A DNA stretch of 64,000 bases from a virus: the IMG/VR virus record IMGVR_UViG_3300007640_000027; one strand, written 5' to 3'. The position numbers were made by a program, and so were the translations under genes. Positions 23,108 to 50,167 of the stretch are shown here, piece after piece. Position 1 is the stretch's first letter. Each line of letters begins with the position of its first letter. The notes under the pieces are model-generated. The model saw nothing but the letters and a program-made list of their open reading frames with translations, made no database searches and had not been told where the DNA came from.

Positions 23108-25549
23108 TTATGACACTGTGTTTCCTTTAAAATACAATGTGTTTGTTGTGTTATCCAATCTTACTCCCTGATCAGTAAATGTAGTATATAATCTATATGT
23201 TCCAGGAGCAAATGAACCACCTGGATTATTTACACTATAAGTATATACTGATGATGCCATACTCGCAGTAACAAAAGTGTTCGGTCCGTTTCCATTAGAA
23301 AAATCTATACTAACTTGTCGGTTTCCACCGCCACCAATACCTTCATCGGGAATTACCCAAGTATACCAAGCATTACCCGGTACAGTACCACCTGATACTT
23401 CAGTTGTAACAAAATTGTACTGTACTATCGCATTACCTTCACTGTCATTACCACCAGTACTTTGAGGTATTGTTTGAGTGATAATCACAGGTACACTTCC
23501 TGTTCCTGCATTTAGACTATAATAATCTAAATAATGACCAATATCTGTGTTTGATGTTGGTGCCAATCCATTAGTAAATCCATAGAAACCAGCACCTTGT
23601 CCTGCCATATATGTACCAATATCACCCGCAATTGTATCAGGTTCAATTAATAGATAGGCAGTTGTTGGTGTTCCCGCAGAAGTACTAGTCGGAGTAGGTG
23701 TTGTTGCTGGAACTGTTTCCGTTGGAGTCGCAGTCACAGTTAAGGTCGGTGTACTCGTTGGTGTACTTGTAATTGTTGGCGTGTTAGTTGGCGTGCTAGT
23801 TACTGTTTGTGTTGGCGTATTACTTACCGTTTGTGTTGGAGTAGCTGTTACCGTAGGAGTACTAGTCACCGTCTGAGTTGGAGTCGCAGTTATTGTTGTT
23901 GTCGGCGTGCTCGTTACTGTCGGTGTATTAGTCGGAGTACTACTTACCGTTTGTGTTGGTGTCGCTGTTACCGTTGAGGTTGGTGTCGCCGTTACCGTAG
24001 GAGTACTAGTAACTGTCTGAGTTGGTGTTGATGTTACCGTTGGTGTATTAGTTACCGTTTGAGTCGGAGTTGCGGTTATCGTAGGCGTATTAGTTACTGT
24101 TTGAGTTGGCGTGCTCGTTACTGTCGGCGTATTAGTTGGAGTACTAGTCACCGTCTGTGTCGGTGTTGCTGTTACTGTAGAAGTTGGTGTCGCAGTTACC
24201 GTAGGTGTACTAGTCACTGTTTGTGTAGGTGTAGTCGTTACTGTCGGCGTATTAGTTACCGTTTGTGTTGGTGTTGCAGTTACAGTTGGTGTATTTGTAG
24301 GCGTATTACTTACCGTTTGTGTTGGTGTCGCTGTTACTGTAGAAGTTGGTGTACTTGTAATTGTTGGCGTGTTAGTTACCGTCTGAGTTGGAGTACTAGT
24401 TACAGTCGGGGTATTAGTTGGAGTATTACTTACCGTCTGTGTAGGTGTTGCGGTTATTGTTGGTGTATTAGTCACAGTTTGAGTAGGTGTACTCGTTACT
24501 GTAGGTGTACTAGTTGGAGTATTACTTACCGTTTGTGTCGGCGTTGAAGTTATTGTCGGTGTATTAGTTGGAGTACTACTTACCGTCTGTGTTGGTGTCG
24601 CAGTTACCGTAGGTGTATTAGTTACCGTTTGAGTCGGAGTCGCAGTTACAGTTGGAGTATTGGTCAAAGTTTGTGTTGGTGTCGCTGTTACTGTCGGTGT
24701 ATTTGTTACCGTCTGAGTTGGAGTATTACTTGGTGTATTAGTTACAGTTTGAGTAGGTGTGGCAGTCACCGTTGGTGTATTAGTTGGCGTACTACTCACT
24801 GTTTGTGTTGGTGTACTAGTAATTGTTTGTGTCGGAGTATTAGTCACCGCTGGTGTTTCACTTGGCGTAGGTGTGTTCGTTAGCGTTTGTGTTGGTGTAC
24901 TGGTAACTGTAGGTGTATTAGTTACTGTTTGAGTCGGAGTACTAGTTACTGTCGGTGTATTAGTTACTGTTTGAGTCGGAGTACTAGTCACTGTTGGTGT
25001 GTTAGTAACCGTTTGTGTTGGAGTTGAAGTCACCGCAGGTGTTTCACTTGGCGTAGGTGTGTTCGTTAACGTTTGTGTTGGTGTACTACTCGCTGTTGGT
25101 GTATTTGTAACTGTCTGCGTTGGAGTTAACGTTAGTGTCGGTGTCGGAGTATTAGTTACACCCGCAGTTTCAGTAGGTGTTGGAGTTGCCGTGGCAGGTG
25201 CAGTACTTGTTAATGTTAATGTTACCGTTGGAGTATTGGTTGGTGTAGGAGTTGGTGTTTGCGTAAATCCAGTTAATGTAACCGTAGGTGTAGGAGTTGG
25301 TGTGACATCTTCAACAACAACTATTTTCTTGGAAACCGTTTCATCATTACAACCAGGTTGTTTGTTAACTACAAAAATCGTATATTGAATTCCCGAGGGT
25401 GATCCAGGTAAATCTAAAACTACCCCCGCAACTATCTGATCACGGGTTATACCCGTTTCAATAGGTGTTGTGGAGGTTGAACCTGTATATATATTAAAAG
25501 GGCCTACAGCGTTTGAACTGAGAGTTAACCTAATTATTACCTGCGACAT
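23108..25549 (-). CDS. Pro/Thr-rich mucin-like stalk protein with small N- and C-terminal domains
   Basis: About 540 aa of TPT(Q/V/N)T(V)T repeats between an ~80-aa N domain and an ~190-aa C domain. Confidence 0.75.
23690..25305 (-). repeat. Degenerate TPTxT(V)T coding repeat
   Basis: 6-8-aa Thr/Pro units with diversified codons. Confidence 0.9.
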
Positions 25550-25625: not shown

Positions 25626-28178
25626 TTAACTTAAACAATCTATGTCATAGTCAATTGATAATGTTAATTTAAAATAGGCGTCTCTTAATGGGTCTTCATC
25701 CCCATTACAGTCAGAAAATATTTGTAAAGTATTTGTGTTCAAATTCAGTCTAAAACTTTCAATTTCAGATATGGTGTTCAATATATCTCTAATCGCATTT
25801 CTATATTGACTATCTGTTGGAACATCATTTAGAGTTGTTCCTGTATAAAAACTTTCGGTTATATTATAACTGATACCGTCACCAGTTAACACCACATTAA
25901 CAGAAAATTCAGCAGTGTTTAATGTACAACCTGTACTTCCGCTAATTAAATCCATATAAGATTCATTTAGCATTTCGGATAAACCTCGTTTTTGTTTGGA
26001 TGTGGTTACAAAACCTGATTCACAAATTTCAAATATTTCATAACATGCAACGTTATTTGGTTTGCATATAATTGAAACTGCCTTTGTTTTTGAACAACCG
26101 TTTGCATCGGTTAAGGTTACGGTGTATGTTCCACCTGATAATCCTGTAATGGTGGATCCTGTTTGTCCGTTATTCCATAAATAAGTGAAAGGTGGTTCCC
26201 CGTCATAGATTGATACCGTTGCGGATCCGTCAATACCCAACGTACAATCAACCCCCGTCAATATAAAATCAATCTCTGGCGTTCCACTTATTGAAAAACT
26301 TGTTGTTGACGTGCAACCATTATTATCTTCAACAGATAAACTATAACTTCCCTCAGATAATTCATTATTGGTAAATGCGCTTGAGAAGTTGTTTAAGCTT
26401 TGTTCAATTATGGTACCTGAGGTGGTATCTGTTAAAGAATAAATTAAAGGAAATGCAACTGCGGTAACTCCTGATGTTACCGTGGCGGTAAAGATTCCAT
26501 TTGTTCCACCACAAGTAGCACCCGTTGTTGAAATGGATACGTTAAATGGATCTTGATTGGCAATTACAATGGTCTGATTATATTCACAACCCTCATTAGA
26601 TATTACTTTTAAGTAATACGTATCACCCGATAAATTATCAAAGGTGTGTGAGGATGACTGAGTTGTAATGGTGGTCACAGATCCACTGGTTCCACCTGTA
26701 AGGGTATATGTTAATATGGTACCTGATGGTGAATTGATATTCACTTCAATAGAACCGTTATTGCCACAAGTGGAATTATTCACATTTACTGAATCTATTG
26801 TAAATGCACCATCTGAAAGAATTGCAACTGATTCTGTTATTTGGCAATATCCGTTATCAAAAACCTGAACTGTATATACAGTAGGACAAAGTCCTGTTAG
26901 TGTTATTGATGTGGAATTGGTTGTTACCGTATATCCGTTGGAAACAGAATAATAATATGGTGCAGATCCACCTGAGATATTCATTGTAAACGAACCATCA
27001 CAATCAAAGCAAGATGCGGTTATTGTGTTAAAATTCAATAACCCCAAAGAACTAACTGTTGGAATGGTGGCGGTTTTGTTGGTTTGGCAACCGTTGCTGT
27101 CTGTCACCACCACGCTCACATTACCTGCGGTTAAACCTGTTGCGGTGGAAGTGGTTTGTCCGTTTGACCATAAGTAAGTATAAGGTCCAACACCTGTTTG
27201 ACCTGTCACCGTTGCAATACCTAAATTGGGAACACATTGTGAGTCACCCGTGATTGCAAAACCGAAATCTAATGCGTCACTTTCATCAATAACAACGGTC
27301 TCAGTAAATGCGGTTCCACCGGCATAATCTTCAACATAAACGTGGTAAAAACCATAATCCAAATTGGAAAAAACGTATGATGAATTATTTGTGGTAACAA
27401 CATTTATTGCACTTCCGTTTTTATATAATGTTAAATCATAAGGTGCAGATCCTGATGCAACAAACACTTCCAATTCACCTGTTGTTGGATCACCACAAGT
27501 TGTTCCTGAAACATTATTTATGGATGCACATATGCAACCTGTAACCTCAACGTTAATATAAAAATCACTATTGATATTACCTGTGGTATCATTTAATCTA
27601 AAAACATATGTTCCACCAGTAAGACCTGAATATGTAAAAGGTCCGTTGCCCGTTTGTGCACTTAAACTACCAGGTATTGTATTTTGTAAAGTATAAGGCG
27701 GAACACCATCTGCCGGTGTTATAACAATTGTACCTCCACTTGGATTTTCACAAACACCCGTAACGGCAAAAGAATAATTTAAAGGACCCTGATAACACGT
27801 TGGAACACAATTGTTTGGTGATACCGTAATACCAAAATAAGGTTCCGTGGTATCCACACAAAACGTCTGACCACTTCCAACACCCGTTCTTTCAATACCA
27901 CAACAATCCGTGAAACTCCAAGCACCACTTAATGTCGTTGCAGAATAACAATCATCCAATAATCCTTGTGATTGCAAACAGTTTGTACAATTTGTATGTG
28001 AGGGTACCAAAAATGTTTGAACGCTCGTACCACCTGTAATTACACCTGTATATTCATAACAAATACCGCTATATATAACGGTATTTCCAACCGAGAAATT
28101 CGCATCTTCAATTGTGAAGATTTGATCCCCTGGGTTTGGAGTACTACATCCTGAAAATACATAAGTGTTTAATGCCAT
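25626..28178 (-). CDS. SprB-repeat (Ig-like) virion protein, Cys-rich N-terminus
   Basis: Repeats GVGPYTYLWSNGQTTSTATGLTAGNVSVVVTDSNGC and GEPPFTYLWNNGQTGSTITGLSGGTYTVTLTDANGC match the SprB repeat consensus. Confidence 0.75.
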   Translation of the reverse strand: MALNTYVFSGCSTPNPGDQIFTIEDANFSVGNTVIYSGICYEYTGVITGGTSVQTFLVPSHTNCTNCLQSQGLLDDCYSATTLSGAWSFTDCCGIERTGVGSGQTFCVDTTEPYFGITVSPNNCVPTCYQGPLNYSFAVTGVCENPSGGTIVITPADGVPPYTLQNTIPGSLSAQTGNGPFTYSGLTGGTYVFRLNDTTGNINSDFYINVEVTGCICASINNVSGTTCGDPTTGELEVFVASGSAPYDLTLYKNGSAINVVTTNNSSYVFSNLDYGFYHVYVEDYAGGTAFTETVVIDESDALDFGFAITGDSQCVPNLGIATVTGQTGVGPYTYLWSNGQTTSTATGLTAGNVSVVVTDSNGCQTNKTATIPTVSSLGLLNFNTITASCFDCDGSFTMNISGGSAPYYYSVSNGYTVTTNSTSITLTGLCPTVYTVQVFDNGYCQITESVAILSDGAFTIDSVNVNNSTCGNNGSIEVNINSPSGTILTYTLTGGTSGSVTTITTQSSSHTFDNLSGDTYYLKVISNEGCEYNQTIVIANQDPFNVSISTTGATCGGTNGIFTATVTSGVTAVAFPLIYSLTDTTSGTIIEQSLNNFSSAFTNNELSEGSYSLSVEDNNGCTSTTSFSISGTPEIDFILTGVDCTLGIDGSATVSIYDGEPPFTYLWNNGQTGSTITGLSGGTYTVTLTDANGCSKTKAVSIICKPNNVACYEIFEICESGFVTTSKQKRGLSEMLNESYMDLISGSTGCTLNTAEFSVNVVLTGDGISYNITESFYTGTTLNDVPTDSQYRNAIRDILNTISEIESFRLNLNTNTLQIFSDCNGDEDPLRDAYFKLTLSIDYDIDCLS

Positions 28179-28180
28179 TT

Positions 28181-31129
28181 TTAACAGGTTAAGCTAACAT
28201 TTATTCCGATATTAACGGTGAGAATACTTTCTCTAAAATTATCCAAACAAGTTGAATTTGAAACAACCAAATTATTACCACTTCTATAATAATTCAATCC
28301 TGATTGATATAAAGAGTCCAAATACGTATCCAACGCATTATACCAATCTGTTTGTGTCGGATAATCATAAATACCGTATCCTGTATAAAATTTCTGTTGA
28401 ACCAGTATTACATTATCCAATCTCACATCCACATACCACTCTGAAAAAACTGAATTTAAATCACAATTGGAAATTGTAAATCCTGAACTACCCGCACACG
28501 ATTTTAATGCTGTCGCCAATTTTGCCCCAAACTCATTAACCTCCACATCACAATTTAATGTTTGATCAATGCAATCATAACCGAACAATTGTCCGTTATA
28601 TTCGCAAGGAATACACGGAATTGGAATAATTTCACAACCACGTTGTCTTCTCCAAGCAAACTTTTGGCGATTTAATACGTTATTTTCCATTTTCTGACCA
28701 CCCAACCAAATTGTGGTGGCAGGTATCACCTGTTCAACCAATCTCATCCAATAAGGTCCCAAACCTAATGTAAAATCAATCATCTTTTGGTACGTATATT
28801 GATTGGAAGGAATATTAACCGTTTGTTGTGATTGAAGGTATTTCCAATAAATGGATTGCAATGCAGGATAACCACCGTTTTTTCCATCTGTGATCCATTG
28901 GCGGTTCCTAACATTAATCATATTGTTATAAAAGGTCTGCGCAAACTCAAAAAACGTTTTTTCTTGCGGTCTCGGATTAATAACCGTCCAATCAACCCCC
29001 TTCGGCGATGGATATGGTGCAGTTAAACCTGTTGAAGGGAACGGATAATCATATTTGTTGGACATCGTCCAAATATCATACAAAATACCCTGACCCATAT
29101 TCAAATATAAATCAATGTTCTTTCTGTTTAAAACCAACCTCTCATCTTCCACATAATAATATGCATTGTAACCCCCCGTTCTTGATCTTCTCAAACCCGT
29201 CTGATTATCAACCCAACTCTTTTTATTATCATAAATGCGAGTAAGACCGAAACCTAATGGATTAAGGAAGGGGAAATTTCTATACCTATCAAAATATTTC
29301 TCACCATAAGTGAACGGTTCAAATTCCGTTTGAACATTTGGATTCTGACCCGTAAATACTGAATTCTGATCATCAGTGATTAATGGTGAACGGTGATCAG
29401 GTGTTAACTCAAACCAACCCGCACCCTTTTGAAAGAAATAACTGTTGTTAACCACCGGTTTTTTTGGATAACCTTGCGCATCCATCGGAATATCCGCTTG
29501 AGTAATGGTAACCGATGAAAAACTGGTGGATGTGGTAAATCCTGTATATTGAACCCCCTGTAACAGATACACATTATTCGGATCCAAAATGGGGGTCTCA
29601 ATGGCTTTTGTTCCACCTGATATGGTGGACCATTCGTAATTGTATCTATTTAAGTTAATCGGACCATCCGCCATATAAATGGTCTCGTTAAACTCAATTA
29701 AGGCTTTTGGTGCACCAGCCATTCTCAATAAAAACTCAACGGATCTTCTGGTACCTTTTGATTTGAAAAGATATGCCGCATTTAAAATTAAATTTCTATA
29801 AAACTGAAAGTTAATTTCATCAGGTGTTTTTGATACCGTTTGACCAGGATAAACCGACGGTGTCCCCTGACCAAATACAGAATTTAAAAAGGCATCGTTT
29901 GTGATCGGTGAAACATTTGTATTGTAACCTAATGTTGCCGCCAAATTCTTCAATAATTGTGAAGGAATATCATTCTTCACATTATAATTAACTGAATTCA
30001 TATATGCCAACGTATCAACAAACTTTTTAAGTTCATCAAACGCTCTACCATAAATTCTTAATATTTTTGTAACCCTTTGATCTTCGGTGTCAAATTCTTT
30101 GAATGCCCCCGTGGTTAAAAATCTAACAATTAAATCGGTTTTGAAATCATCCAAATTTTCTCCGATCTCTTGCAAACTTTCAATATAAATGTTAAAACGA
30201 TTTGTTCTAATATCCAAGTTCCATAACCCATCAGTTGGCCAAGTAACACTCTTATCAATCTTATATAACTTTCCACTATCAGATTCTTCTATAATCTGAA
30301 ATTTGGAAGTATATTTTGGAACCACCATTCTATTAAGCAAGAATTTTTCCAACTCATCAAAGTTATTGGAAAATGCTTTTTCTGTATTTAATGAATTTGG
30401 TTTAACAACCAAAGGCAATGTTGTTGAGTTATTCCCTGAAAAGGGGTTACCTGCAACTGTAATGGTTACCGTCCCCGCAGATAAACGAACCGAAGGTATA
30501 AAATCAATAATCGGATATTCTGTATTAACATTTGAAACATATAAAGAATATTTTTCAAATTCTCTCGTTAAATTTCTGATCGGAGCAACCTCCATCGGTC
30601 TAACCGACAAATTCCTATCAGAATTTTGTGAATAATCAATATCAAAAGGATTTTTAAAACGAGTAACATCCAAATCAAAAGTGGTGGTGTTATCTATTGA
30701 ATCAAAACTGATATTGGTCGCAGTGTTCGCTGTTGTAAAATCATAATAAACCGAATCAATCTGAATTGCCGCAGGAAAATAATTAATAATCTTAGTAACA
30801 GATACCTCAAATCTTTTTACCAATGAACCATACATATTATAGTTCATAACTTGCGTCACATCAAAGTTTGGATAAACACCCAAATTCTTTGCCGCAATCT
30901 CACGAGATTCAAAATCAGACGTAACATCCAAATCATCCAAAGAAATTGGACCAGAAAACGCACCCAAATTAAAGGTTCTATTTACCTTCTCAACCACAGA
31001 AGTTGAAAACTCAAAGTTACCCTGAGTTAATCCCCCTCCGTCAACAACTTGGAACCCAACCAAATTATCAGAAAAAGTATCTTGTCCGTTTGCAGGTGCT
31101 GGTGGATATCTGAATTTATTACTCGCCAT
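28181..31129 (-). CDS. Baseplate wedge-like protein (tail protein I / T4 gp7-like motif)
   Basis: LKNLAATLGY...YLFKSKGTRRSVEFLLRMAG motif, located in the baseplate cluster. Confidence 0.6.
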   Translation of the reverse strand: MASNKFRYPPAPANGQDTFSDNLVGFQVVDGGGLTQGNFEFSTSVVEKVNRTFNLGAFSGPISLDDLDVTSDFESREIAAKNLGVYPNFDVTQVMNYNMYGSLVKRFEVSVTKIINYFPAAIQIDSVYYDFTTANTATNISFDSIDNTTTFDLDVTRFKNPFDIDYSQNSDRNLSVRPMEVAPIRNLTREFEKYSLYVSNVNTEYPIIDFIPSVRLSAGTVTITVAGNPFSGNNSTTLPLVVKPNSLNTEKAFSNNFDELEKFLLNRMVVPKYTSKFQIIEESDSGKLYKIDKSVTWPTDGLWNLDIRTNRFNIYIESLQEIGENLDDFKTDLIVRFLTTGAFKEFDTEDQRVTKILRIYGRAFDELKKFVDTLAYMNSVNYNVKNDIPSQLLKNLAATLGYNTNVSPITNDAFLNSVFGQGTPSVYPGQTVSKTPDEINFQFYRNLILNAAYLFKSKGTRRSVEFLLRMAGAPKALIEFNETIYMADGPINLNRYNYEWSTISGGTKAIETPILDPNNVYLLQGVQYTGFTTSTSFSSVTITQADIPMDAQGYPKKPVVNNSYFFQKGAGWFELTPDHRSPLITDDQNSVFTGQNPNVQTEFEPFTYGEKYFDRYRNFPFLNPLGFGLTRIYDNKKSWVDNQTGLRRSRTGGYNAYYYVEDERLVLNRKNIDLYLNMGQGILYDIWTMSNKYDYPFPSTGLTAPYPSPKGVDWTVINPRPQEKTFFEFAQTFYNNMINVRNRQWITDGKNGGYPALQSIYWKYLQSQQTVNIPSNQYTYQKMIDFTLGLGPYWMRLVEQVIPATTIWLGGQKMENNVLNRQKFAWRRQRGCEIIPIPCIPCEYNGQLFGYDCIDQTLNCDVEVNEFGAKLATALKSCAGSSGFTISNCDLNSVFSEWYVDVRLDNVILVQQKFYTGYGIYDYPTQTDWYNALDTYLDSLYQSGLNYYRSGNNLVVSNSTCLDNFRESILTVNIGINVSLTC

Positions 31130-31133
31130 ATTC

Positions 31134-32042
31134 TTAATCTATAATGTTTGTAAAATTCTTACTGAAATCTATATTACTTCCACGATCCTGTCTGACCTCA
31201 TATAATAAGTTGTTAAACTGATCCCTAATCTCAAATAAATTATATTGTTTATAAATATTGGCATCAGAATCATAAAGTGTATAAATTCCATCTTCAATAC
31301 TTTTGGTCTGATCACCATATAATGCAATCGCCAACGTATCAATATCGTGTTCCGCCATCTCAATCTCCACCGTGATCGGATTGAAATACGTGTTGGTGAT
31401 AATGATATTTTGATTCGGCTGACCAATATAAGGGGTCGCGTTTGGATTATTGGAAGGAGCACTTGCCGGTGACACCGTACAAAAAATTAAATCTGTTGCA
31501 CCTTGAACATACCTATAACGAATCGCTTTTTGTTGTGAATTGGTTAAATTTGTAACCACTGGTTCACAGAAAAATGATGAGGTGATAATTCTATAAAAAT
31601 TTGGTATCTTTGTTCCGTTGTTATTCAAATATTCAACTCTATAACCTACCAAACCCTGAGATATAAAACGGTTACGGAACTTCGCAGGAACATTATTCAA
31701 ATCAATAACAATACCTTTTACGTTTGGTAATGCAGATAAAACCCCACAATCTGTAATCGTGGTACGAATCTCCGCAGGACGAATATACAAAGTATATATC
31801 CCCAACTGATTGAATTCATCTGCTGGTAATTTCAAATTATATAATCCACCCAAAATTTCCACATTCGCATTTCCACCCGTATTGGCATTATGAAAATATG
31901 GCGTCAATATATTTGAAGCATTTAATTTTTTTAATACAAACTGATTTGTAACGTCCCTTGAAGGTGTATAATTCAAAATTATATCCACATCTTCTGGTGA
32001 CATATCTGCCGGTCTAACCGTTCCGTAAGTTCCTAAACTCAT
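31134..32042 (-). CDS. Hypothetical virion/baseplate-cluster protein (302 aa)
   Basis: Clean ORF, tightly packed in the operon. Confidence 0.6.
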   Translation of the reverse strand: MSLGTYGTVRPADMSPEDVDIILNYTPSRDVTNQFVLKKLNASNILTPYFHNANTGGNANVEILGGLYNLKLPADEFNQLGIYTLYIRPAEIRTTITDCGVLSALPNVKGIVIDLNNVPAKFRNRFISQGLVGYRVEYLNNNGTKIPNFYRIITSSFFCEPVVTNLTNSQQKAIRYRYVQGATDLIFCTVSPASAPSNNPNATPYIGQPNQNIIITNTYFNPITVEIEMAEHDIDTLAIALYGDQTKSIEDGIYTLYDSDANIYKQYNLFEIRDQFNNLLYEVRQDRGSNIDFSKNFTNIID

Positions 32043-32044
32043 AA

Positions 32045-33124
32045 TTATTGTTCATTTATCTTAAAGAAACCATATCCATAACGAACAAGATCTCCTAGGT
32101 TATCAACTTCACCAATTCTTTGCAAAGCTTCAAAGGCTGAATTCTTCCCCCTTTGTATAAATATTTCCGATTGTATTTCTGGTGAGTCAACTACGTTCAT
32201 TAATACTTCTTCTTTTGTAATTCCCGTGGCAACCAACATATTTGAGGTTAAACCCGATGAATTTAATACAAAAACCGTCTTACCATTCGCATAATCAAAA
32301 TAGGTAACATTATCTATCGTATAAGACGTATAACTCGGATTTATGCTCAATACCTGACCATAATCCTGACCAAATTTCTTAACAATAACCGAAGGATTAT
32401 ACTTAACCGTACCATATAATTTTAATTCATCCAATTTGGAAGAAGTATAACCCGTAACCACAAATGGAACACTTGTGAAATTGTTGGACGTTTGCTGCGA
32501 AACCACATTTTCACTGTCACCCGTGAAAATAAAATCATAATTCAACGGAATACCCGACCAATTACCACCCTGAGGAGTAAATGTAATGTTACCCTGAGGA
32601 TTGGAAATCGTTACACCAGAAAAAGGGGATTGAACCGTTTGCAATACCTGAGTCACACCCCAAGGATTGGTCTGCGTTAATGTAACCGTATACCCCGATG
32701 GTGTTGGAGGATAAGTGTGTGACACCGCATTTGGTGAAGTTGTTGTTATAATGTCAGTCGTCCCATCACCCCAATCTACCTCATAAGAAGAAAGTTGCAA
32801 AAACTTTTTAAATTGACTTGAGGTGTTATATAATAATAATTGGTATACGCTTGAGGGGTTGCCCGAATAAACAAAATTATTAACCACATCTTTTTGTAAT
32901 ATAAAACCATCAAAAGGTGAATAAAAACCAATATCATTAAACTTTTGTGTAAATAATATTGGAATGGTTAATCCCGTTAACAAACTATCCCCATTTGTTC
33001 CACCAGATAAAAGGGCGGTCATTGCAGAATAAACACCAAAAGTCACCCCACTTAAAGTTTGTTGTGAAATATTGGTTAACAAACTCTCAGGCGAAACCTT
33101 AATATAATATTGTTCTTGTTCCAT
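32045..33124 (-). CDS. PKD-domain-containing virion protein
   Basis: YEVDWGDG...SHTY...YTVTLT PKD signature. Confidence 0.6.
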   Translation of the reverse strand: MEQEQYYIKVSPESLLTNISQQTLSGVTFGVYSAMTALLSGGTNGDSLLTGLTIPILFTQKFNDIGFYSPFDGFILQKDVVNNFVYSGNPSSVYQLLLYNTSSQFKKFLQLSSYEVDWGDGTTDIITTTSPNAVSHTYPPTPSGYTVTLTQTNPWGVTQVLQTVQSPFSGVTISNPQGNITFTPQGGNWSGIPLNYDFIFTGDSENVVSQQTSNNFTSVPFVVTGYTSSKLDELKLYGTVKYNPSVIVKKFGQDYGQVLSINPSYTSYTIDNVTYFDYANGKTVFVLNSSGLTSNMLVATGITKEEVLMNVVDSPEIQSEIFIQRGKNSAFEALQRIGEVDNLGDLVRYGYGFFKINEQ

Positions 33125-33978
33125 TATGGATTAACATATTCATACCAGTTTATGGATTCATATTTTGTTCCCACTCTTCCCAAATTACCATAAGTTTTAT
33201 AAACCCCATATTCGTGAGAGTTATAATTTAAATCCAACTTATAATAAAAATAATCTTGTGGTGGAAAATTGGTCGGATCAATAATCTGACTTTGTGGTCT
33301 ATTCAAAAAGCGAACAAACTCACCAATTTTGGCGTTAAAGAATTTTGCCGACATATAAAACTCCGTAATGTTATAATAAGATATGTCTTTTAACCAATAA
33401 ACAAAAAACCCTTCCTTATCCCCAACAAAATCCAAATTGAAATTTGGGATGTTAACATCCACAATCTTTTGCAATTGAATTCGTTGTGATCCAATATTGG
33501 TTGAGGTTTTTAAACCTTGCTGGGTCGGAATAATAATGGTGAAATAAATTTTTTGATTTGCGGGATCAGGATTATCATAAAAGTCCAATTTGAAAAAACT
33601 ATTTTTAAATGAATTCACATAAAAATAAATTTCCTTGTTGGTGAAACTCCTTCCGCTAAATGAAGTACCCGTTGATGCGGTATATGATGTTAACCAATTT
33701 GATGCAGATGAGGTCGCCACCGATTGACCATAATCATAAAACTTGAAATTATAATCAATTACAGTTTTATATACATCATTTTGAATGTCCAACCATCTCA
33801 AATGTGAAAAACGATTGACCTCAAAATCTTCAATCGGATTAATCACCTTTTCCACCACATCTTGCTCATATTCTTGGATCAAATCCTCACGTCCCACCGC
33901 ATCCCAATCTATTTCAATCGGAATGTTGATGTATTGCTCATTCGGCTTTAATGATATTCTAAATTTATTCACAGTCAT
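33124..33978 (-). CDS. Hypothetical baseplate-cluster protein (284 aa)
   Basis: Overlaps both neighbours, aromatic-rich. Confidence 0.6.
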   Translation of the reverse strand: MTVNKFRISLKPNEQYINIPIEIDWDAVGREDLIQEYEQDVVEKVINPIEDFEVNRFSHLRWLDIQNDVYKTVIDYNFKFYDYGQSVATSSASNWLTSYTASTGTSFSGRSFTNKEIYFYVNSFKNSFFKLDFYDNPDPANQKIYFTIIIPTQQGLKTSTNIGSQRIQLQKIVDVNIPNFNLDFVGDKEGFFVYWLKDISYYNITEFYMSAKFFNAKIGEFVRFLNRPQSQIIDPTNFPPQDYFYYKLDLNYNSHEYGVYKTYGNLGRVGTKYESINWYEYVNP

Positions 33979-35671
33979 CTATTACTGGTGGATATGACAC
34001 CACATTATAGTTTATTGCACTTTGTTTTTTCATCGGACGTTGCAAGAAAATAATCTGAGAAAAAGGATAATGCGCCCCATTTAAAAATGGATAATCCACA
34101 CCAATACCATCCGCATCCACATACCCATATTCAAACAAATCTCTCCACCTCCATTTATTTTCATACTCCGAGAAAAATGCATAATCAGGAATGTTATCAA
34201 CATCCTCCCGATTACCCTTTTCAACATAACTTGAATATTCTTTGATCTTCACCATATGGTGAGGCACATATGAATATCCATTCGGCGAATTGGAACTTGA
34301 ATTATTGGAAAAATGATTCGGATTAAATGAAAACTTATGCGACATCTTTGATACCACATACTCTTTTTGAAGATATTGATTGAACTCACAAAAATCACCC
34401 TTCAAAATATCATTTACACCCAACGTTCCGTTATATGTAAATACCCTCGCACCAACATTATAAAACTGCTTCGGGACATTTGACCTGTTATTTACCCAAT
34501 TTGAAAGATTCCACCACGCATCTGTATTATCCGGATTGAAATTAAAATCCCAACCAATCTGCAAATTCGTGTTATTGTTGTTACTGTTACCAAACCAACC
34601 ATAAAAACCCTTATGCACAATCGTAACAAATAACTCAGATATCGGACGATCCAAATTGTCCCTTAATAATGAAATATCCACATCCTTATCAAAACTAAAA
34701 GTATAACTCTGATTACCATTTAATGTGGATATCCTCGTCTTATGATCAGGAGTTATCGCAGAATATTCCAATTTTCTCCTTTTTGGAAATGCATTATTCT
34801 CAAAACCAGCACGAGTTAAATCCAAATCAGTCGGCGTTAACAATACCTGATGCCTTTTTACATAATACTCAGAAAGCGTCTCACCACTATTATTGATATC
34901 AACAATCCTCCTAAATGTCCCCAAAGCACCCTCCAAAGATACACCTTGCGAAAAACCAAAATTAAAAATGGAAAAAACCGTTTTTTCATTTCCATAACTT
35001 TTATCACCCAAAGAATATACCTCAAACTTATCACGACCATTTATCGTGAAATTTAAATATACATAATCACCCACACTCAAATTGTGATTACCACCACAAT
35101 AAAAAGTAATTAATTTTTTACCCGAAACAACCCTGTTTTTGATCACAAAAGGTATTCCGTCAGAAACATTAAATGTTAACGTGTTACCCGAAAACGGATC
35201 CTTAAATTGCATCGTCTGACCCGTGAAATTATCATAAGGTCTGGTCAAATAAATGTCCCAATTATACGTGGACGCACTCTTTGATAGAAATTTTGGATGA
35301 CCCGTAATTCCACTCGTTCTGAAAAAATCAAACTCAGGAAAGGGGGGATAACCTTTCCATACATTATTAACAATTGAAACTTCAGGTTCCAAATAATATA
35401 AAGAATTTAAATATGGTGGATATGTTGTTGTACCTGAAATTGTATTTTCAAAAATATTTGTTATTTTTCCCGAAATTCTAATAATACTACTTTCTTGTCT
35501 TTCCTTATTGAATCTCTGTTCCAAATCAACAATAACTGTTCTATCACCCTCAATCTTATTCAACTGAGAACTTTGAAAAGGTACTTGAACAAATAGATTC
35601 GTATTAGATGAAGACGCGAATCTATCCGACCCTCTAACAATTCTAATATCTGTTGTTTTTTTGTTACCCAT
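33965..35671 (-). CDS. Hypothetical baseplate-cluster protein (568 aa)
   Basis: TAATG-type coupling to the upstream gene. HNLSVGDYVYL motif is common in virion proteins. Confidence 0.6.
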   Translation of the reverse strand: MGNKKTTDIRIVRGSDRFASSSNTNLFVQVPFQSSQLNKIEGDRTVIVDLEQRFNKERQESSIIRISGKITNIFENTISGTTTYPPYLNSLYYLEPEVSIVNNVWKGYPPFPEFDFFRTSGITGHPKFLSKSASTYNWDIYLTRPYDNFTGQTMQFKDPFSGNTLTFNVSDGIPFVIKNRVVSGKKLITFYCGGNHNLSVGDYVYLNFTINGRDKFEVYSLGDKSYGNEKTVFSIFNFGFSQGVSLEGALGTFRRIVDINNSGETLSEYYVKRHQVLLTPTDLDLTRAGFENNAFPKRRKLEYSAITPDHKTRISTLNGNQSYTFSFDKDVDISLLRDNLDRPISELFVTIVHKGFYGWFGNSNNNNTNLQIGWDFNFNPDNTDAWWNLSNWVNNRSNVPKQFYNVGARVFTYNGTLGVNDILKGDFCEFNQYLQKEYVVSKMSHKFSFNPNHFSNNSSSNSPNGYSYVPHHMVKIKEYSSYVEKGNREDVDNIPDYAFFSEYENKWRWRDLFEYGYVDADGIGVDYPFLNGAHYPFSQIIFLQRPMKKQSAINYNVVSYPPVIDDCE

Positions 35672-38600
35672 TATTGAACTGTTAAATAATCTTTTATGAA
35701 ACGATCCATTGCGGTTTTACCTTTTTTCAATCCGAAATAAAAATGGAACGGAGCACCTACTTTAAATCCATAGTCTAAATAACCCTCACTATCATATCCA
35801 ATTATATTATTTGTTTGACCTGCAGTATTAAATATAGGTGCAGGTACACCATTTATACGGTTGTATATGTATCCAGTACCAAAACCACCAGCAGGATTAA
35901 CATAAGGACTCGGTGAAGTATTAAAATTATCACCTTGATATTCCCTTTTTGGGAATGTTCCAGTATTTGAATTCGCAACAGTATACCAGTTATTGGTTGT
36001 CCTACCCCACAAGCTGGCAGTAAATGCATCATACTTAATAATCCACGGATAACCACTTACTTCTTGTGTGTTACTATAACCAAATTTATTTTGAATACCA
36101 TTGGTTATTGGTCCAATTGTTATCTCGCCATCGGTCAATAATCTTCTATTTACTGTATTAGCACCATAAAAAATACCAATTGTTGTTCTAGCAGGAATAG
36201 GTATCGTAAAACCAAGGAAATTAATGTTTATTAGTTCAGGTATTAATTGTTGAGCACTGCTCGGATAATTACCATCAAAAAATGGTACTATTCCATATTC
36301 TGAATTTATACTGTAAGCCTGTGCAACATCTCCCGTTATTCTACCGTCAAATAATCTTTGGAAAGTCCCTGTTGTATTACTAACTACTCTGTTATTAAAA
36401 AACATATTAATACTCTGAGAATCAAACAAACTCAAACCAGTAGTTCCTTGTTGTTTATTCGCAGAATTAGTTAATATACCAATAGCAGATAAGGCACTAA
36501 TATCATCATTATTGTTATATGTTGTGGGTTTAAGAGTATTAACATAGTAACCCAAATAATTTGGATCCAAGTTAGCGTTAACCAAATATGGCGCCTTTGG
36601 TCCAAGTTCCATCACTGTAGTTGGAAACCATAAGTTTGTATCGTTTTGACCAAAATAACCCGTTCTTGAAGGTACCTGTCCTATAAAATCAAAATCATCA
36701 TTCGCAACATTGTATTTTGATGGTGTACTTCTATGATAAAAATTATTAGTACTATTATCAAAATATACCGGCCCCTGATGATTTAAACCTGAGAAAAAGT
36801 TATTATCATCACCACAATATTCATATCTTTGGACTTCATTGCTTGAATTATAAATTGTGTTTTTTTGAAAAGGTATCATATATAATGAACCGTTTACCCA
36901 ATTATTTTGGAACATTTCACCAATTACATTATCACATAACCCTTGAATAAACTTAATCCGTGAAACCCACTCAAAAAGCATTTTATAATCAACAGGAATA
37001 CTAAGAATAAATGGATCTCTAACTAATACATAACATCCATTTTTCATCCTGTTATATCTATTAATACTCAAACCATAATCACAATTCTTATCTGACGCAG
37101 GTTTTAAACCAAAACTATTACCAAATCCGTCATAACATTGCAAAAGATCCATATTACCACAAGAATAAAATTGATCCAATAATGATTGATCCAAAACTGT
37201 AGTATCTTCTTGTGAGTCCTGACCTGTACCTGATACATCAAAATTGGTGGTTGTCAGTTCTCCACCAATAATATCAGAAACAGACCCTTGATCATCAAAC
37301 AGATACGCCGTAAAATCTCGGTTTAAATGAAGGGCAAAATTTTGAAACTTTAATATAGTATTAATTGTATTATCAAACCCATATTTTTCAAAATCCGATG
37401 TTGGTAATCTGTCTGATCTAAAAACTATATTATTGGAATTTGACATTGTAGTTTTTGGATTACTCGTAGTACCTGAAAAATGATAACTAGATGATATTGT
37501 CCATACCTTTGCCGAAGGATTATTCACAATAATTCCATTGCCATTCGGATTGTTAAAATTAGAAAACTGATATGTTGACCCTTCAACTCTTTCAATTAAA
37601 GTTGTACTTAATTCATTATTAACTGTCTCATAACCGTTAGATCCAAAACTATATGCCGGATCACTCAAAATACTACTAACCGATTTATCTATTGAAGAAT
37701 AAAACGTAAACCCGCTCGTATCATAAGAAACATAATCATTACTATCAGGTACAAATGTAAATGAAGGGTGATATAAACTACTGTTATTATTAACAGAATC
37801 ATTATATAAGTTAGTTGAGGTTAAATAATCATAATGAGATTCTGGTGTTTTATAATCGTGGAACCACGTACCCACACCTGTATTCGGTTGAATTGGAACA
37901 TTTAAGAAATAATTACCTGATACCTCAACCGTCCCATTAAAACTTGTTTCACCAAATAATTTGGATAAATCATATTTTATTTTTTGTTTTGGTGTATATA
38001 CATCCACACCTCTAGTTAAGAAATAAATAACCGCATTTGAGTTACCAGGAATATTAGTTGGACTACTTGCACTTATATCCGTAGTAGCAACATCTCTGAA
38101 CAAATCAATATCCGTAAAATCAATTATACTTCCTGATGAAGTACAAAAAAACTGACTTGTTTTTTCAAAAATATATTTCTTTAATAAACTAACACCAGAA
38201 CCCAATTTACTTTCAGCCTCAGAAAGAGTCATTCCTGTTATAACCTGAAAATACTCAATACCTGAAGTGAAATTATATGAATTTGAAGTTTGCGTATTAT
38301 AAATATCAATATTAACTACCCCAACAGTTCCGTCTGGTTTTATATATGTGACCGAAGACCCCACATAATTTGTAGAACTATTTAAACTACTTCCCGTTAA
38401 ATTAAAATTGTTAAATTGATTTAAACCCGTACCACTATATAGACCAAAGTTATTGTCCGTAATACCAGAAGGGTTAACAAAACTCATAATTGTTGACGCA
38501 GATATGGTCGTACCTGAATCCATCACTAATATTAGTGGTAAATCAGTAAAGGCTTGTGAGTTGTTTGGAACACCCTGCAATTGATCATTAATTATTTCCG

Positions 38601-40750: not shown

Positions 40751-42589
40751 TCAACTGAAATCTACGTTAGTTAGATTTTTAATTCTTACTTTGATATCTT
40801 TTTGTGGGAATCTAATCTGATAAATCTGACTTGGTTCGGCAAAAATAGTATCATCAATCAATTGAATTTGTTTTGTGGTAGAATCTGAATATCTTTGTGA
40901 TGTCTCAGATGATGAATACTGACCCCCAACTTTATTGAATATTTTTAGATCTGATAATGTAACAACACCAGGAATATCTTGTACTATTCTTCTGATATCA
41001 GAAACATTCACATTTTTACCTAAATTATTATTAACAGGTGTCATATATGAATCAATAGAATTAACTATATTTGTAATCACATTACCCTGACTTTGTGTTG
41101 ATTCAACAACAACAGATACTTCAAACTCCAAATCAATAACTTGTGCTGTGGTTACTTCAATATAATCATTTATCATTCTGTAATTAGATAAATAATTTGC
41201 AATATTTTGTTTTAATGTGTTTGAAACCAAACTTGTTAATTTACCTGTGCTATCATAAGATAATGTCTCAATTTTTATCTTATTATCATCTTCAATTATT
41301 GAAACTTTTGCTGGTGATCCAAACTTTCCTGGCATAGTTCTTAATAAAGAATTATAATCATTAATGGTTACCGCTCTTTTTTGTGCCGCAAAGTTAAAAC
41401 TGACCATATTTCTGATCTCCTCAATTGTTGGTATATCTGCCCCACCAATAGCTGCGGTCACATTGTTACATCTCAAACTATTAATTACGTTTTGATTAAC
41501 TATATTTGAAGGACCGTTTACCGAAAAATATGTATTACCAAATGAAGTTAATGTGTTAACACCAATATTTGTTGCAACACCACCACCAATTCTATATTGA
41601 ACAAATAATGTGGTATTTGGTCTTACTGTTAATCCTAATCCAATATTATTTTGATATTGTTCCAATCTTAAAGGAACTCCCGTTCTTGCAAATTGAGCCA
41701 ATTGTTCGTCAGGTGTTGTTGTTCCACCACCAAAAGTTAACTTGCAAAAACCTTGTGGTGTAAATTCTGAAACAAAACGATTTTCTGTTTCCAAATATCT
41801 CCCAACTTTAATCCCTGGTTGGTCTGAAGCCTTTGTTGGATCTTCAATAAAAACTCTGTCTTCTGCTAAAGCATCAACCTCATACCATTTGTTTGGTGAA
41901 TTTATAAATTCATCATACGTTGGAGGTGTTTGATAATTCGTTCCACTTTTTTCAATAACCGAAGTAATACTTAACACATTCGGCTCAGGCAAAAAGAACT
42001 CAAAAAATGGTTTTACATTTGAAGGATTAATAACCCTTTTAAACGTTTTTGTAATACCGTTAACCACCACTTCTCTTTTTGTAATGGTGTAACTAACCAA
42101 AATGTTATTATTGTCAAATACAGGAACTTTGGTACGGTTTGGAAAACCATCGTTATTGTATTGTGATGAAAAATCAATATCATATATATTCTCAAATACT
42201 TGACCGGCACCGATGAATTGTGATCCCGCTCTCAATATTCCAAGATATCTAGTATCTTCTGAATCTCCGTTAGCAGGAACGGTAATACTCACATCCACAA
42301 TCGCAATTGAGGGTCTGTTACCAGGTATTTTTAAACCATAAGTTCTCGCAATGTTAAAAATAGAGGTTTTTTGTTGGGCATATTGTAGGACTGTTTCTTG
42401 AATACTACGGTCCATATGGTAATGTAAATTATCACCAATCGCAGCGTTTAAGTCCAAAAACACAGAATAAACAGACGCATCATTAAAATTATCAATAAGT
42501 TCTGGATAATACTGTCTTGTGTAGTTTATTAACTCTGTTCTTAATGATTCAAAATCTCTGTTTACGTATGATATTTTTCTATTTGCCAT
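40751..42589 (-). CDS. Baseplate wedge subunit (T4 gp6 / baseplate J-like)
   Basis: YVNRDFESLRTELINY...NFNDAS, YRIGGG..TNIG and AAIGGAD...QKRAVTINDY motifs. Follows the gp25-like gene. Confidence 0.85.
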   Translation of the reverse strand: MANRKISYVNRDFESLRTELINYTRQYYPELIDNFNDASVYSVFLDLNAAIGDNLHYHMDRSIQETVLQYAQQKTSIFNIARTYGLKIPGNRPSIAIVDVSITVPANGDSEDTRYLGILRAGSQFIGAGQVFENIYDIDFSSQYNNDGFPNRTKVPVFDNNNILVSYTITKREVVVNGITKTFKRVINPSNVKPFFEFFLPEPNVLSITSVIEKSGTNYQTPPTYDEFINSPNKWYEVDALAEDRVFIEDPTKASDQPGIKVGRYLETENRFVSEFTPQGFCKLTFGGGTTTPDEQLAQFARTGVPLRLEQYQNNIGLGLTVRPNTTLFVQYRIGGGVATNIGVNTLTSFGNTYFSVNGPSNIVNQNVINSLRCNNVTAAIGGADIPTIEEIRNMVSFNFAAQKRAVTINDYNSLLRTMPGKFGSPAKVSIIEDDNKIKIETLSYDSTGKLTSLVSNTLKQNIANYLSNYRMINDYIEVTTAQVIDLEFEVSVVVESTQSQGNVITNIVNSIDSYMTPVNNNLGKNVNVSDIRRIVQDIPGVVTLSDLKIFNKVGGQYSSSETSQRYSDSTTKQIQLIDDTIFAEPSQIYQIRFPQKDIKVRIKNLTNVDFS

Positions 42590-48113: not shown

Positions 48114-49126
48114 AATTTACGTTTTTTTGTTTTAAATCTACGTTTTTCACTTCTTGTTAATTTCATAAATGGTGTTAGAAAATTTACCCAAGCGTTATCA
48201 TATTTACCCAAGTATTTAAAAATACCATCTTCTCTCATAAGTCTCATTAAGTTCTTATATCCCCTGTTTTCAGGGTCAATATCTTCTTCGTAATAAGACT
48301 TTATTGTTTGTTTGGACTCATCATCCAAAAGAGGGTTAGAAAGGTCCACAAGTCTTTTATTTACCTCAAAGAACTCATCACCAAAAACACCTTTTCTTGT
48401 TTTTCCTGATAATAAGTTCATCAATGCCCTATTACCTTTGTCTTCACTTAATAACCTCTCAGCCTTTTCTAAAATATCCTCAATTTTTATGACATCATCA
48501 ACTAATTCAGGAAATAATTTTACAAAAGTTTTTTCACCCAAATATTGTATACCGTCAATATTATCTGATTTATCTCCCGATATTGTTTTAAAAACCGCAA
48601 TGTTTTGGTGAGGAATAGAAATGTGGTATAAATCTATTTTATCACCGTACTTATAATACTTTTTCTTACTTGGAGAATATATCTGAACATTTTCAGATAT
48701 TAATTGGGTGAGATCTTTATCTGAAGAAAAAATTGTAATTTTCTCATCTTCAGCAATCTGACAATAGTATGCAATTGCATCGTCACTCTCAGCCCCATCT
48801 ATTTCAACCTGACGAATAAACATCTCTTCCAAATATTTTCTAATTCGGAGATTTTGCCATTCATAAGATTCTTTCTTTTGTGGATTAAGAGTTTCTTTTC
48901 TATTGGATTTATATTCAGGATAAAATAATCTTCTTTGGGAAGAGTTATCCACTCCGTCCCAAAAGACAATAACTTTATTAAAGTTATGTTCCTCAATAAA
49001 TCTTCTTATGGTGTTTACGAAGTGATAGATTGCACCAATGTGCTTTCCTTCGTGATAGTATTCTCTAACACCGTGAAAACCAATTTGAAACAAATTATTT
49101 CCGTCAACCAATAGGGTTTTTGTCAC
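48110..49126 (-). CDS. 5'-3' exonuclease / flap endonuclease (T4 RNase H, PolI N-terminal-like)
   Basis: LLVDGNNL, YPEYKSNR, ESDDAIA, SSDKDLTQL and GDKSDNIDGI..LGEKT. Confidence 0.92.
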   Translation of the reverse strand: MTKTLLVDGNNLFQIGFHGVREYYHEGKHIGAIYHFVNTIRRFIEEHNFNKVIVFWDGVDNSSQRRLFYPEYKSNRKETLNPQKKESYEWQNLRIRKYLEEMFIRQVEIDGAESDDAIAYYCQIAEDEKITIFSSDKDLTQLISENVQIYSPSKKKYYKYGDKIDLYHISIPHQNIAVFKTISGDKSDNIDGIQYLGEKTFVKLFPELVDDVIKIEDILEKAERLLSEDKGNRALMNLLSGKTRKGVFGDEFFEVNKRLVDLSNPLLDDESKQTIKSYYEEDIDPENRGYKNLMRLMREDGIFKYLGKYDNAWVNFLTPFMKLTRSEKRRFKTKKRKL

Positions 49127-50154
49127 GACTGACTTGATTCAGATTCAACTTCTTTTCCTTCTTCCGATACTACCAAATTAAAGTCACCTTCAATTCCAAT
49201 GATTTCTTTCCAATAATCAGAATTTTCCGTTTTGTAACCTTCAATTGATTTCTTTTCTTCTGCACTGTCTTTACCAGAAAGAAATCCGTGTGCCGTCACA
49301 ATAATCTTTCCGTCCTCATAACCAAGTCCGTTGATATGGTTTTTTAAAACAGAAACTTTTGTTCGGGTTGCAAATTTAACCTTTCTTTTGTTTTTAACAG
49401 CAGAAATTTTTGTGGTTCCCGCATTTTTTTGATTTCCAAATAAGAAAACCAAAGATGAATTCAACCAAATTGATTCACCACCTTTCGCCTTAATTTTTGG
49501 TTGACCAAAAGGATTATCAGGTATTTCAACCCAAGGTTGATTAACAATAACCAAAGTATTTTCATATTTTGATGTGGATTTGCGAGAACCCGAAATTCTT
49601 TGATTAATACCCATACCTATTTTATCCGCCAAAACTGCGGCGTTATGTTGTTTACCACCTTTTCCATCATATGTCATTTTACAAGGAACTGATCCAACAG
49701 AATCCCATAAAAATAAAAGATCATATGGTAAATCACCTTTTTCTTGTGCATCCAAAAGTTCATTTATGTAATCGGTGATTTGCTCAATATAACTGAAGTC
49801 ATTATTAAAAATAAAAAATCCATCCCATTCAATCTCACCCGTTTCTTGATCAACCATCTCCTCACATTCAAAACCCATAAGTTTAGCATGTTCAAAAGAC
49901 CACTTTTGTTCCGTGATAATAAAAACAGGTAATACATCATTCTGTTGTGCCCAAACAGCACTCTTAACTAATGCGGTTGTCTTTCCCGTATCTGAATGAC
50001 CCAAAAACATATTTAAATGACCAATTGCCGGACCAGGTAAACCCACCGCATCCAAAAACACCTCTCCCAAATCAATAAATCTCTGATTTTTGTATTTGGC
50101 ACTCGCAGAAAACTTTTTCTTAATTGAGTTAAATTCTTTTTTCTTAATTGACAT
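49123..50154 (-). CDS. RecA/UvsX-like recombinase
   Basis: Walker A GHSDTGKT, LWDSVGS, IVNQ, KAKGG and KNH. Start moved to 50154 because the track start (50196) lies inside a terminator hairpin. Confidence 0.85.
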   Translation of the reverse strand: MSIKKKEFNSIKKKFSASAKYKNQRFIDLGEVFLDAVGLPGPAIGHLNMFLGHSDTGKTTALVKSAVWAQQNDVLPVFIITEQKWSFEHAKLMGFECEEMVDQETGEIEWDGFFIFNNDFSYIEQITDYINELLDAQEKGDLPYDLLFLWDSVGSVPCKMTYDGKGGKQHNAAVLADKIGMGINQRISGSRKSTSKYENTLVIVNQPWVEIPDNPFGQPKIKAKGGESIWLNSSLVFLFGNQKNAGTTKISAVKNKRKVKFATRTKVSVLKNHINGLGYEDGKIIVTAHGFLSGKDSAEEKKSIEGYKTENSDYWKEIIGIEGDFNLVVSEEGKEVESESSQS

Positions 50155-50167
50155 ATCTTCAAACAAT

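Follow-up and report, generated by a model that had tools for sequence, protein, structure and literature searches.

Near-complete loss of the trinucleotide CTA from the coding strand of a baseplate module in an uncultured T4-like giant phage

The baseplate block and its CTA deficit

The window analysed here is a 64-kilobase (kb) stretch of the virus record IMGVR_UViG_3300007640_000027, an uncultured T4-like giant phage, and our subject is a block of six baseplate-module genes within it whose coding strand has lost nearly all copies of the trinucleotide CTA. All long open reading frames (ORFs) of the window lie on the - strand, so that TAG on the + strand corresponds to CTA on the coding strand; between positions 26899 and 35593 the + strand carries 6 TAG sites, where about 50-58 are expected. 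The first gene of the purged block (33965-35671, on the - strand like the other five) encodes a module protein of 568 amino acids (aa) and has 4 CTA vs 12.7 expected, two of the four lying within its first 26 codons. It is followed by the genes for a 284-aa module protein (33124-33978; CTA 0 vs 5.8 expected), a 359-aa protein with a weak PKD-domain match (32045-33124; 2 vs 8.4), a 302-aa protein that is the most conserved of the module, with about 81% identity to relatives (31134-32042; 0 vs 6), and a conserved 982-aa baseplate-module protein with no family match (28181-31129; 2 vs 21, with TAG at 22 vs 36). The sixth gene (25626-28178) encodes an 850-aa SprB-repeat/Ig-like tail-appendage protein, and it is within this gene, at about 26900, that the purge ends on the left: its N-terminal half has no CTA and its C-terminal half has 10. 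Searches of protein families and of the PDB gave no name to the block proteins.

The deficit is real and highly significant. TAG occurs on the + strand at 26882, 26898, 30793, 30840, 32096, 32301, 34008, 35285, 35594 and 35605, and is dense beyond; one TAG-free gap on this strand spans 3895 nucleotides (nt; 26899-30792; P = 5e-12). A previous reading of the DNA from its letters alone (the sequence-only reading) had reported no + strand TAG from 26901 to 30792 and about 6 in 26901-35580, and both counts are borne out. For the latter interval the count of 6 compares with 58 at the rate of the 35.7-64 kb region (6.7 per kb; P(<=6) = 3e-18), and with 49.1 under a first-order Markov expectation. 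When two strain contigs that fall entirely within the block were shuffled with their dinucleotides preserved, both strands together gave 84.5±7.2 and 71.3±7.0 CTA, vs 40 and 28 actually present, of which the coding strand holds only 3 and 4. Synonymous-codon shuffles of the genes in 28181-35671 gave 54.2±5.5 CTA vs 8 observed, and with the gene at 25626-28178 added 78.6±6.9 vs 18; in both cases 0 of 1000 shuffles were as low. Codon usage alone is thus ruled out by the synonymous shuffles, and dinucleotide content by the Markov expectation and the dinucleotide-preserving shuffles; the earlier view that leucine codon bias alone would not suffice is upheld, and the refutation named along with it, a general CT-poor usage by which shuffles would yield the deficit, does not hold, as the shuffles did not reproduce it. 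CTA on the + strand, that is, coding-strand TAG, had been described as reduced to a lesser degree, and we find it about halved (56 vs 96 by the Markov expectation, 67 vs 122 by shuffle); on the coding strand of the genes in 28181-35671 there are 8 CTA vs 54 and 51 TAG vs 92.

Five further TAG-poor patches had been proposed for the window. Only one of these stands, a second TAG-free stretch on the + strand inside a 2160-aa gene (53437-54647; 1210 nt, 0 TAG vs 10 expected, matched by 0 of 500 shuffles); the other four are attributable to chance, and TAG gaps of at least 600 nt number 5 vs 3.4 expected.

The loss affects all three codon frames, as had been suggested: the ratios of CTA to that in the relatives described below are 0.23, 0.04 and 0.17, each under the lowest relative. 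The main component is at codon junctions of the type NCT·A (the dot marks the boundary between codons), with 2 observed vs 48 expected in 26901-35671. NCT codons remain (141), yet they almost never precede A, and NCC·A is up 1.8-fold; among four-fold codons before A, T is the last base in 2 of 220 NCN codons vs 84 of 151 in other families (p = 2e-38). Observed/expected values for T·A junctions in the block are 0.89 for NTT·A, 0.87 for NAT·A, 0.63 for NGT·A and 0.04 for NCT·A, and NTA·A stands at 1.36; a general avoidance of T·A (U·A) junctions is ruled out, the effect being confined to a preceding C. Before TA, two-fold Y-ending codons end in C 2 times and in T 69 times (p = 2e-4). The loss of coding-strand TAG is confined to NTA·G (0.34-0.36), which has been turned into NTG·G, and T·AG shows no specific reduction. 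Per 1000 codons, NCT·A goes from about 20 to 0.8 while NCC·A goes from 6 to 19.6, and NTA·G goes from 20.9 to 6.0 while NTG·G goes from 10.9 to 32.9, a near one-for-one exchange, with the TTG and GTG codons of the block mainly placed before G. No longer motif, of the kind that was to be derived from the residual sites, emerged around them, and CTAG is not specially avoided (0.46, on par with other TAG-containing 4-mers).

The block also coincides for the most part with a compositional island (28200-35500, - strand), in which G at third codon positions reaches 0.17-0.28. The block value of 0.20 is above every one of the 60 relatives (0.07-0.17) and twice that of its own flanks (0.10-0.13). TTG is equal to or commoner than TTA in the island, and TAC, GAC and ACT are low. 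At its third positions G is doubled and A is down, as is C in two-fold codons, and its coding-strand G+T excess is the strongest within about 130 kb of the genome. The left borders of the two zones differ, the G-rich zone starting at 28.2 kb and the CTA-free zone at 26.9 kb. Taken over 50 genes, the depletion of CTA is correlated with that of TAG (rho = 0.42), and both are correlated with third-position G (rho = -0.55 and -0.38, respectively).

Relatives, strains and the rest of the genome

The six-gene module is syntenic and conserved in 67 loci of IMG/VR (46 non-identical blocks); for the purge we compared 60 relatives' loci of the module. The 982-aa protein is 54-65% identical to the relatives' versions, and its nearest non-self homologue among 5.8 billion proteins has 65% identity. 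The module of the relatives carries 10-19 CTA per kb and is like its flank in composition, and the observed/expected value of CT·A is 0.56-1.27 in the relatives vs 0.05 in this phage. The purge is thus restricted to this one lineage among the sampled phages. A family-wide trait of these genes is ruled out, since the 60 block loci and about 40 polymerase relatives are unpurged, as is a signature of the host genome, since 79 Flavobacteriaceae-type loci have CT·A at 0.46-1.31, none near 0.05.

Another word is missing from the relatives. GATC is at zero in 55 of 67 module loci and in 51 of 56 DNA polymerase loci of relatives, over 5-23 kb, and occurs at about 2-3.5 per kb in this phage (about 3) and in a minority of relatives (L005, L031, L037, L041-L043, L046, L047, L055-L057, L208, L209, L222 and L223; relatives are labelled L001-L067 and L170-L224, and this phage L068-L088). 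This GATC purge is clean and lineage-specific within one phage family.

Eight co-circulating strains, 97.5-99.5% identical and from independent assemblies, are all purged, with 3-10 CTA per 8.7 kb, so that the state is maintained across the population. Of 167 synonymous single-nucleotide polymorphism (SNP) alleles, 7 create CTA vs 13.3 expected (p = 0.046), and because CTA-creating SNPs are fewer than expected, there is weak evidence that CTA is still being removed in the population.

Recombination-active junctions delimit the module, and one of them (35671-36000) falls at the right edge of the purge; here strain L081, 1-2% divergent across the block, jumps to 70 differences in the 250-nt bin 35750-36000. 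At the left variable junction (24500-25500), which lies about 1.4 kb beyond the point where the purge ends on the left, strains L080, L084 and L085 have 30-100 differences per 250 nt. Strains sharing about 99% identity over the block diverge by 28-40% in a Pro/Thr-repeat gene and towards the C-terminal end of the 1678-aa gene, and these jumps mark allele-swapping junctions on both sides of the module. Identity ranks to the relatives correlate at rho 0.64-0.85 among the five inner block genes and at -0.2 to -0.5 with the flanking genes. The fit of purge to module is nevertheless imperfect, because on the left the purge stops at 26.9 kb, 1.4 kb short of the module's edge, and the G-rich zone begins only at 28.2 kb. 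Both borders had earlier been placed within ORFs, which is correct for the left one (inside 25626-28178), whereas the right one is no more than about 80 nt away from the start codon at 35671.

An outward walk via public contigs encoding identical proteins made about 130 kb of the phage reachable. Genes of the window itself include those for a baseplate J/gp6-like wedge protein (40751-42589), a gp25-like protein, both ribonucleotide reductase subunits, a DnaB-like helicase, a 5'-3' exonuclease, a UvsX-like recombinase and SSB; the walk adds a tail sheath, a family-B DNA polymerase, an SNF2 helicase, a glycan-synthesis island, terminase, portal, prohead protease and a gp23-like major capsid protein. 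The window had no match in the GenBank phage collection, nor one by exact word in IMG/VR. The host is probably a marine or estuarine flavobacterium, because the ribonucleotide reductase of the phage has 65-67% identity to Flavobacteriaceae enzymes and one block protein has SprB repeats. Ribonucleotide reductases 65-67% identical to those of the phage and of Flavobacteriaceae also occur on L095, L137, L141 and L164, contigs binned as Paceibacterota, Parcubacteria, Acholeplasma and Piscirickettsiaceae metagenome-assembled genomes, which mis-binning may explain.

Outside the block, the pooled core genes show a mild and symmetric depletion (CTA 0.66, TAG 0.67), a level that corresponds to the common under-representation of TAG/CTA in many genomes. 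Single genes depart from this level in both directions, and the genome is a patchwork. The DNA polymerase gene has 10 CTA vs 20.5 expected and 3 TAG vs 23.7, and the 684-aa gene adjoining it is strongly purged of both about equally, leaning to TAG loss. In the gene for the terminase large subunit TAG has an observed/expected value of 0.24, in a 513-aa gene on the other strand CTA is at 0.21, and the UvsX-like recombinase gene (49123-50196, - strand) has 1 CTA vs 5.2 and 3 TAG vs 8.5. The gene at L227:9842-11383 and the SNF2 helicase gene, both purged and on the opposite physical strand, have lost coding-strand CTA more than TAG. No depletion is seen in the fibre genes, the glycan island or the major capsid gene (0.8-1.2), the last of which is at 1.18 for CTA and 0.83 for TAG; the sheath gene is at 0.64 and 0.63. 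Expression level is ruled out as a cause, as capsid and sheath are not purged. A rule based on the physical (replication) strand is ruled out as well, as genes on the same strand lean oppositely and the pooled strands stand at 0.69/0.64 and 0.72/0.72.

In the polymerase gene the replacement routes can be followed against relatives, which at 80-86% identity carry 25-47 CTA and 26-47 TAG. None of 31 ancestral-like TAG sites, at which most relatives have the word, is kept, TGG having replaced them 16 times, with TCG, TTG and GAG also found; 3 of 21 CTA sites are kept, with replacement by CAA (6), CCA (2) and CGA (2). Control trinucleotides in the gene are kept at 32-54%. Because there are several replacement routes in this gene, what was removed would appear to be the word itself rather than the target of one mutation type.

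A number of side observations belong here. On the coding strand of the non-block core genes (window 35671-63977, L072 and L078), AGC stands at 0.56 by synonymous shuffle (z = -12.9), like TAG/CTA; in the same genes G-ending codons seldom precede C, and TAGC is the rarest TAG-containing 4-mer (0.23). The glycan-synthesis island (L225:11667-16723) encodes a DegT aminotransferase, an acetyltransferase, glycosyltransferases and a cytidylyltransferase, and with its low third-position G and zero CTA/TAG depletion it looks recently acquired. The 30 listed genes of the window end in TAA (26), TGA (3) or TAG (1) and have no in-frame TAG, so that stop-codon recoding is not indicated. Among the head genes of the phage there is a 63-aa gene with a Pfam match to ribosomal protein S21 (L232:5866-6057), and a 526-aa protein with Fe-superoxide-dismutase domains is encoded at L072:6016-7596.

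Candidate causes of the purge

As the mechanism of the purge we suggest, at a probability of roughly 0.35, that there has been selection in this lineage against the CTA/TAG word in a mosaic genome, with a short-motif nuclease as the most likely agent. The word would have been removed by selection on the nucleic acid, and not on protein or codon choice; it is the sole trinucleotide combining both disfavoured steps, CT/AG and TA, and the agent would most likely be a nuclease of the host or of a competitor with a very short target, for which the purge of GATC in most relatives would be a parallel. The word would have been lost by the synonymous routes NCT·A to NCC·A, NNC·TAY to NNT·TAY and NTA·G to NTG·G, and the purge took about 70 synonymous changes. 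Removal would be near-complete in the six-gene baseplate block, the DNA polymerase, the terminase large subunit, the 684-aa gene and the UvsX-like gene, and weak or absent in exchanged or newly acquired modules among them the glycan island, the fibre genes and the 35.7-kb flank; within the patchwork, recombination would then account in part for where the block ends. The sequence-only reading had also proposed selection against an asymmetric motif. Loss of the word in all frames, and by several routes in the polymerase gene, agrees with that proposal as far as the word itself is concerned, whereas the strand asymmetry is a feature of the block only, the core genes being at 0.66/0.67. Its further proposal that TAG-rich segments are imports or exempt is in line with the position of the fibre genes and the right flank in strain-exchanged regions, although the right flank carries GATC.

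Several observations weigh against selection by a nuclease. A double-stranded target predicts equal loss in both orientations, and in the block the loss is unequal (CTA 8 vs 54, TAG 51 vs 92); the polymerase and terminase genes, on the same strand as the block, lose mainly coding-strand TAG. A restriction-type purge would be expected genome-wide, and here the capsid and sheath genes are barely affected and the purged genes are scattered. About 130 kb of the phage could be reached, and neither a methyltransferase nor a nuclease gene was seen there; we know of no nuclease with a CTA/TAG target, and none was found. The change from NCT·A to the otherwise rare NCC·A would also be expected from a directed T-to-C process. 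The left purge edge (26.9 kb) is off the strain-level breakpoints (about 25.3-25.5 kb). The 1678-aa gene of the right flank has no close relative (42% identity), and its recent import is not demonstrable; because it carries GATC, the right flank cannot have come in recently from those sampled relatives, the majority, that are GATC-free.

A more specific proposal is that the agent is a three-base, strand-specific nuclease of the host or of a competing element or phage, be it a nickase of DNA that reads TAG or a ribonuclease (RNase) that reads CUA, and this we consider unlikely. No specificity of a nuclease, methyltransferase or primase could be linked to CTA/TAG. A nickase predicts a shortage of closely opposed sites, and opposite-strand TAG pairs within 10 nt number 81 vs 74±6, so that the nicking signal suggested earlier finds no support at this fine scale. 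If the proposal were nonetheless true, the enzyme would be potent enough for whole gene modules to have been rewritten synonymously and rendered target-free on one strand, and such enzymes would have left the local one-strand purges in this phage family's baseplate genes as their footprints.

It is also conceivable, though on balance improbable, that the purge is a matter of history only, the block having been imported by recombination from an unsampled sister lineage that is CTA-free and rich in third-position G, with nothing acting on the word now. That the block is a compositional island unlike both flanks and all relatives, that its phylogenetic affinities are unlike those of the flanking genes, and that the module borders are recombination-active would all fit such an import. 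The donor, however, is not visible, the nearest non-self homologue of the 982-aa protein among the 5.8 billion proteins being 65% identical; the CTA-free and G-rich zones do not share a left border (26.9 vs 28.2 kb); and the other purged genes (polymerase, 684-aa gene) differ from the block in codon usage. The purge has moreover been kept over 2.5% strain divergence, with CTA gains below expectation, and an import merely shifts the question to the donor.

The restriction of the loss to the coding strand of the block would be accounted for by a CUA-cutting endoribonuclease, whether a host toxin resembling MazF/ToxN or a shut-off RNase of a phage, that selects for CUA-free messages of the six genes. 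RNases with targets of 3-7 bases exist, and recoding genes to drop the sites protects them (PMC8634880, PMC10893535, PMC5414051). The loss of coding-strand CTA in three frames without a specific reduction of T·AG, the like preference for CTA loss in L227:9842-11383 and the SNF2 helicase gene on the opposite strand, and the right border at the start codon at 35671 all point in this direction. The DNA polymerase, terminase and 684-aa genes, however, lose coding-strand TAG more than CTA, for which a second enzyme would be needed, and in the block TA·G, the antisense word under such a scheme, is reduced to 0.34-0.36 despite T·AG being kept. The left border falls within an ORF (25626-28178); overlapping stop and start codons suggest that the block shares a transcription unit with the unpurged upstream 1678-aa gene, and no promoter or terminator was resolved. 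The most abundant late messages (capsid, sheath) are unpurged, and a CUA-specific RNase or MazF was not found in the literature. We thus regard an RNase acting on these messages as rather improbable.

We give somewhat less credit to translational codon-pair selection, in which the purge would be an extreme local form of the avoidance of nnUAnn, whose antisense reads UAG. Most of the signal is indeed at codon junctions (NCU·A, NUA·G), and the mild form (0.5-1.0) is seen in the rest of the phage and in flavobacterial genomes; nnUAnn is the most avoided codon-pair type in all domains of life (Tats et al. 2008, PMC2585594), and 83% of such pairs carry antisense UAA or UAG, by a mechanism that is not known (PMC2585594). 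Against this, only the C context is extreme (NCT·A 0.04 vs NTT·A 0.89, NAT·A 0.87 and NGT·A 0.63), the highest-expressed genes are unaffected (capsid 1.18 and 0.83, sheath 0.64), relatives with the same proteins have no purge, and in-frame CTA codons are low too.

A context-specific mutation process, or a repair or deaminase activity like very short patch (VSP) repair that converts T:G to C:G, would turn the centre of CTA/TAG into CCA/TGG with no selection needed, combined with a strand-asymmetric A-to-G and C-to-T drift in the block. The near one-for-one shifts from NCT·A to NCC·A and from NTA·G to NTG·G, the placement of TTG and GTG mainly before G, and the retention of T·AG, where a central change alters the protein, are all as such a process would have it, and since CTA has two bases hit by the drift (C and A) and TAG one, it could yield the asymmetry. 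The central-transition products CCA/TGG dominate in the block, and in the polymerase gene TAG went mostly to TGG; there, however, CT·A went mostly to CA·A, and TAG also to TCG, TTG and GAG. C·TA was removed via a change of its first base. An enzyme acting genome-wide would be expected to reach the capsid, fibre and glycan genes too; vsr- and dcm-like genes were not seen in the approximately 130 kb that is the reachable part of an incomplete genome; and CTA-creating SNPs do occur in the population, three central C-to-T changes among them. A mutational origin therefore seems slightly more doubtful again.

Finally, an artefact of ordinary codon or dinucleotide bias or of chimeric assembly can be dismissed: in many genomes TAG/CTA is the trinucleotide with the strongest under-representation, and this phage has a baseline of 0.66, but no shuffle type reproduces the deficit, and a chimera is ruled out by identical junctions in independent ENA, JGI and Logan contigs.

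Comparison with known systems

Motif avoidance is one of the few routes by which the enemies of a phage can be inferred from sequence alone. If a nuclease is the cause of the purge, bacterial defence would include a type of specificity that has so far not been described, and the enzyme could be sought directly in Flavobacteriaceae carrying such phages. If mutation and repair, or an extreme form of the nnUAnn rule, is responsible instead, the block offers a strong natural contrast to orthologues that are 54-65% identical and have no purge. The patchwork of purged and unpurged genes is also a marker for tracking module exchange in giant phages.

Genes free of MazF-type sites (PMC5414051, PMC8634880) resemble the block in that a 3-base word is absent from the sense strand in every frame. 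They differ from it in that no CUA-specific enzyme is known to us, in that the left border here is inside an ORF, and in that other genes of this phage avoid UAG instead. The avoidance of nnUAnn (Tats, Tenson and Remm 2008, PMC2585594) is alike in that the main loss is at a U·A junction with an antisense UAG. The universal effect, however, is mild and covers UUA, UAA and UAG contexts, whereas here only CUA is extreme (0.04), and the purge is local, lineage-specific and absent from the most highly expressed genes, with in-frame CTA lost too; neither an avoidance of all U·A junctions nor a stronger effect in highly expressed genes is seen.

The under-representation of CTAG/TAG in enterobacteria, together with VSP repair, is similar in that T is lost in the C-T-A context and products of the CCA/TGG type are gained. 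VSP repair acts at CTWGG-like sites beside Dcm sites, is strand-symmetric and is genome-wide; in this phage no vsr or dcm gene was seen, and the polymerase gene has several replacement routes. In phage T7, the 6-bp Type III site of EcoP15I is orientation-biased over the whole genome, and as in our block an asymmetric site is tolerated one way and eliminated the other way, giving a one-strand deficit; here, by contrast, the word has 3 bases and the deficit extends over 9 kb, and other genes have the opposite or no orientation bias.

The avoidance of restriction sites shares with the purge the synonymous loss of a short DNA word in one lineage, as with the zero GATC of most relatives over 12-23 kb. 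Known sites are 4-6 bp, mostly palindromic, and avoided genome-wide and on both strands, unlike the 3-base, asymmetric word of this phage, which is lost patchily and in the block from one strand; we know of no cognate enzyme for it. In keeping with restriction-site avoidance, the depletion goes beyond codon and dinucleotide expectation, and the two strands are roughly equal in the 684-aa gene, as they are in the core genes when pooled (0.66 and 0.67); at odds with it, the strands are unequal in the block and the purge is not genome-wide. The cases of motif avoidance that are understood concern 4-6-bp sites, genome-wide and on both strands. Here a 3-base asymmetric word is nearly gone from one strand of a 9-kb module, in one lineage, and this state is maintained in the population.

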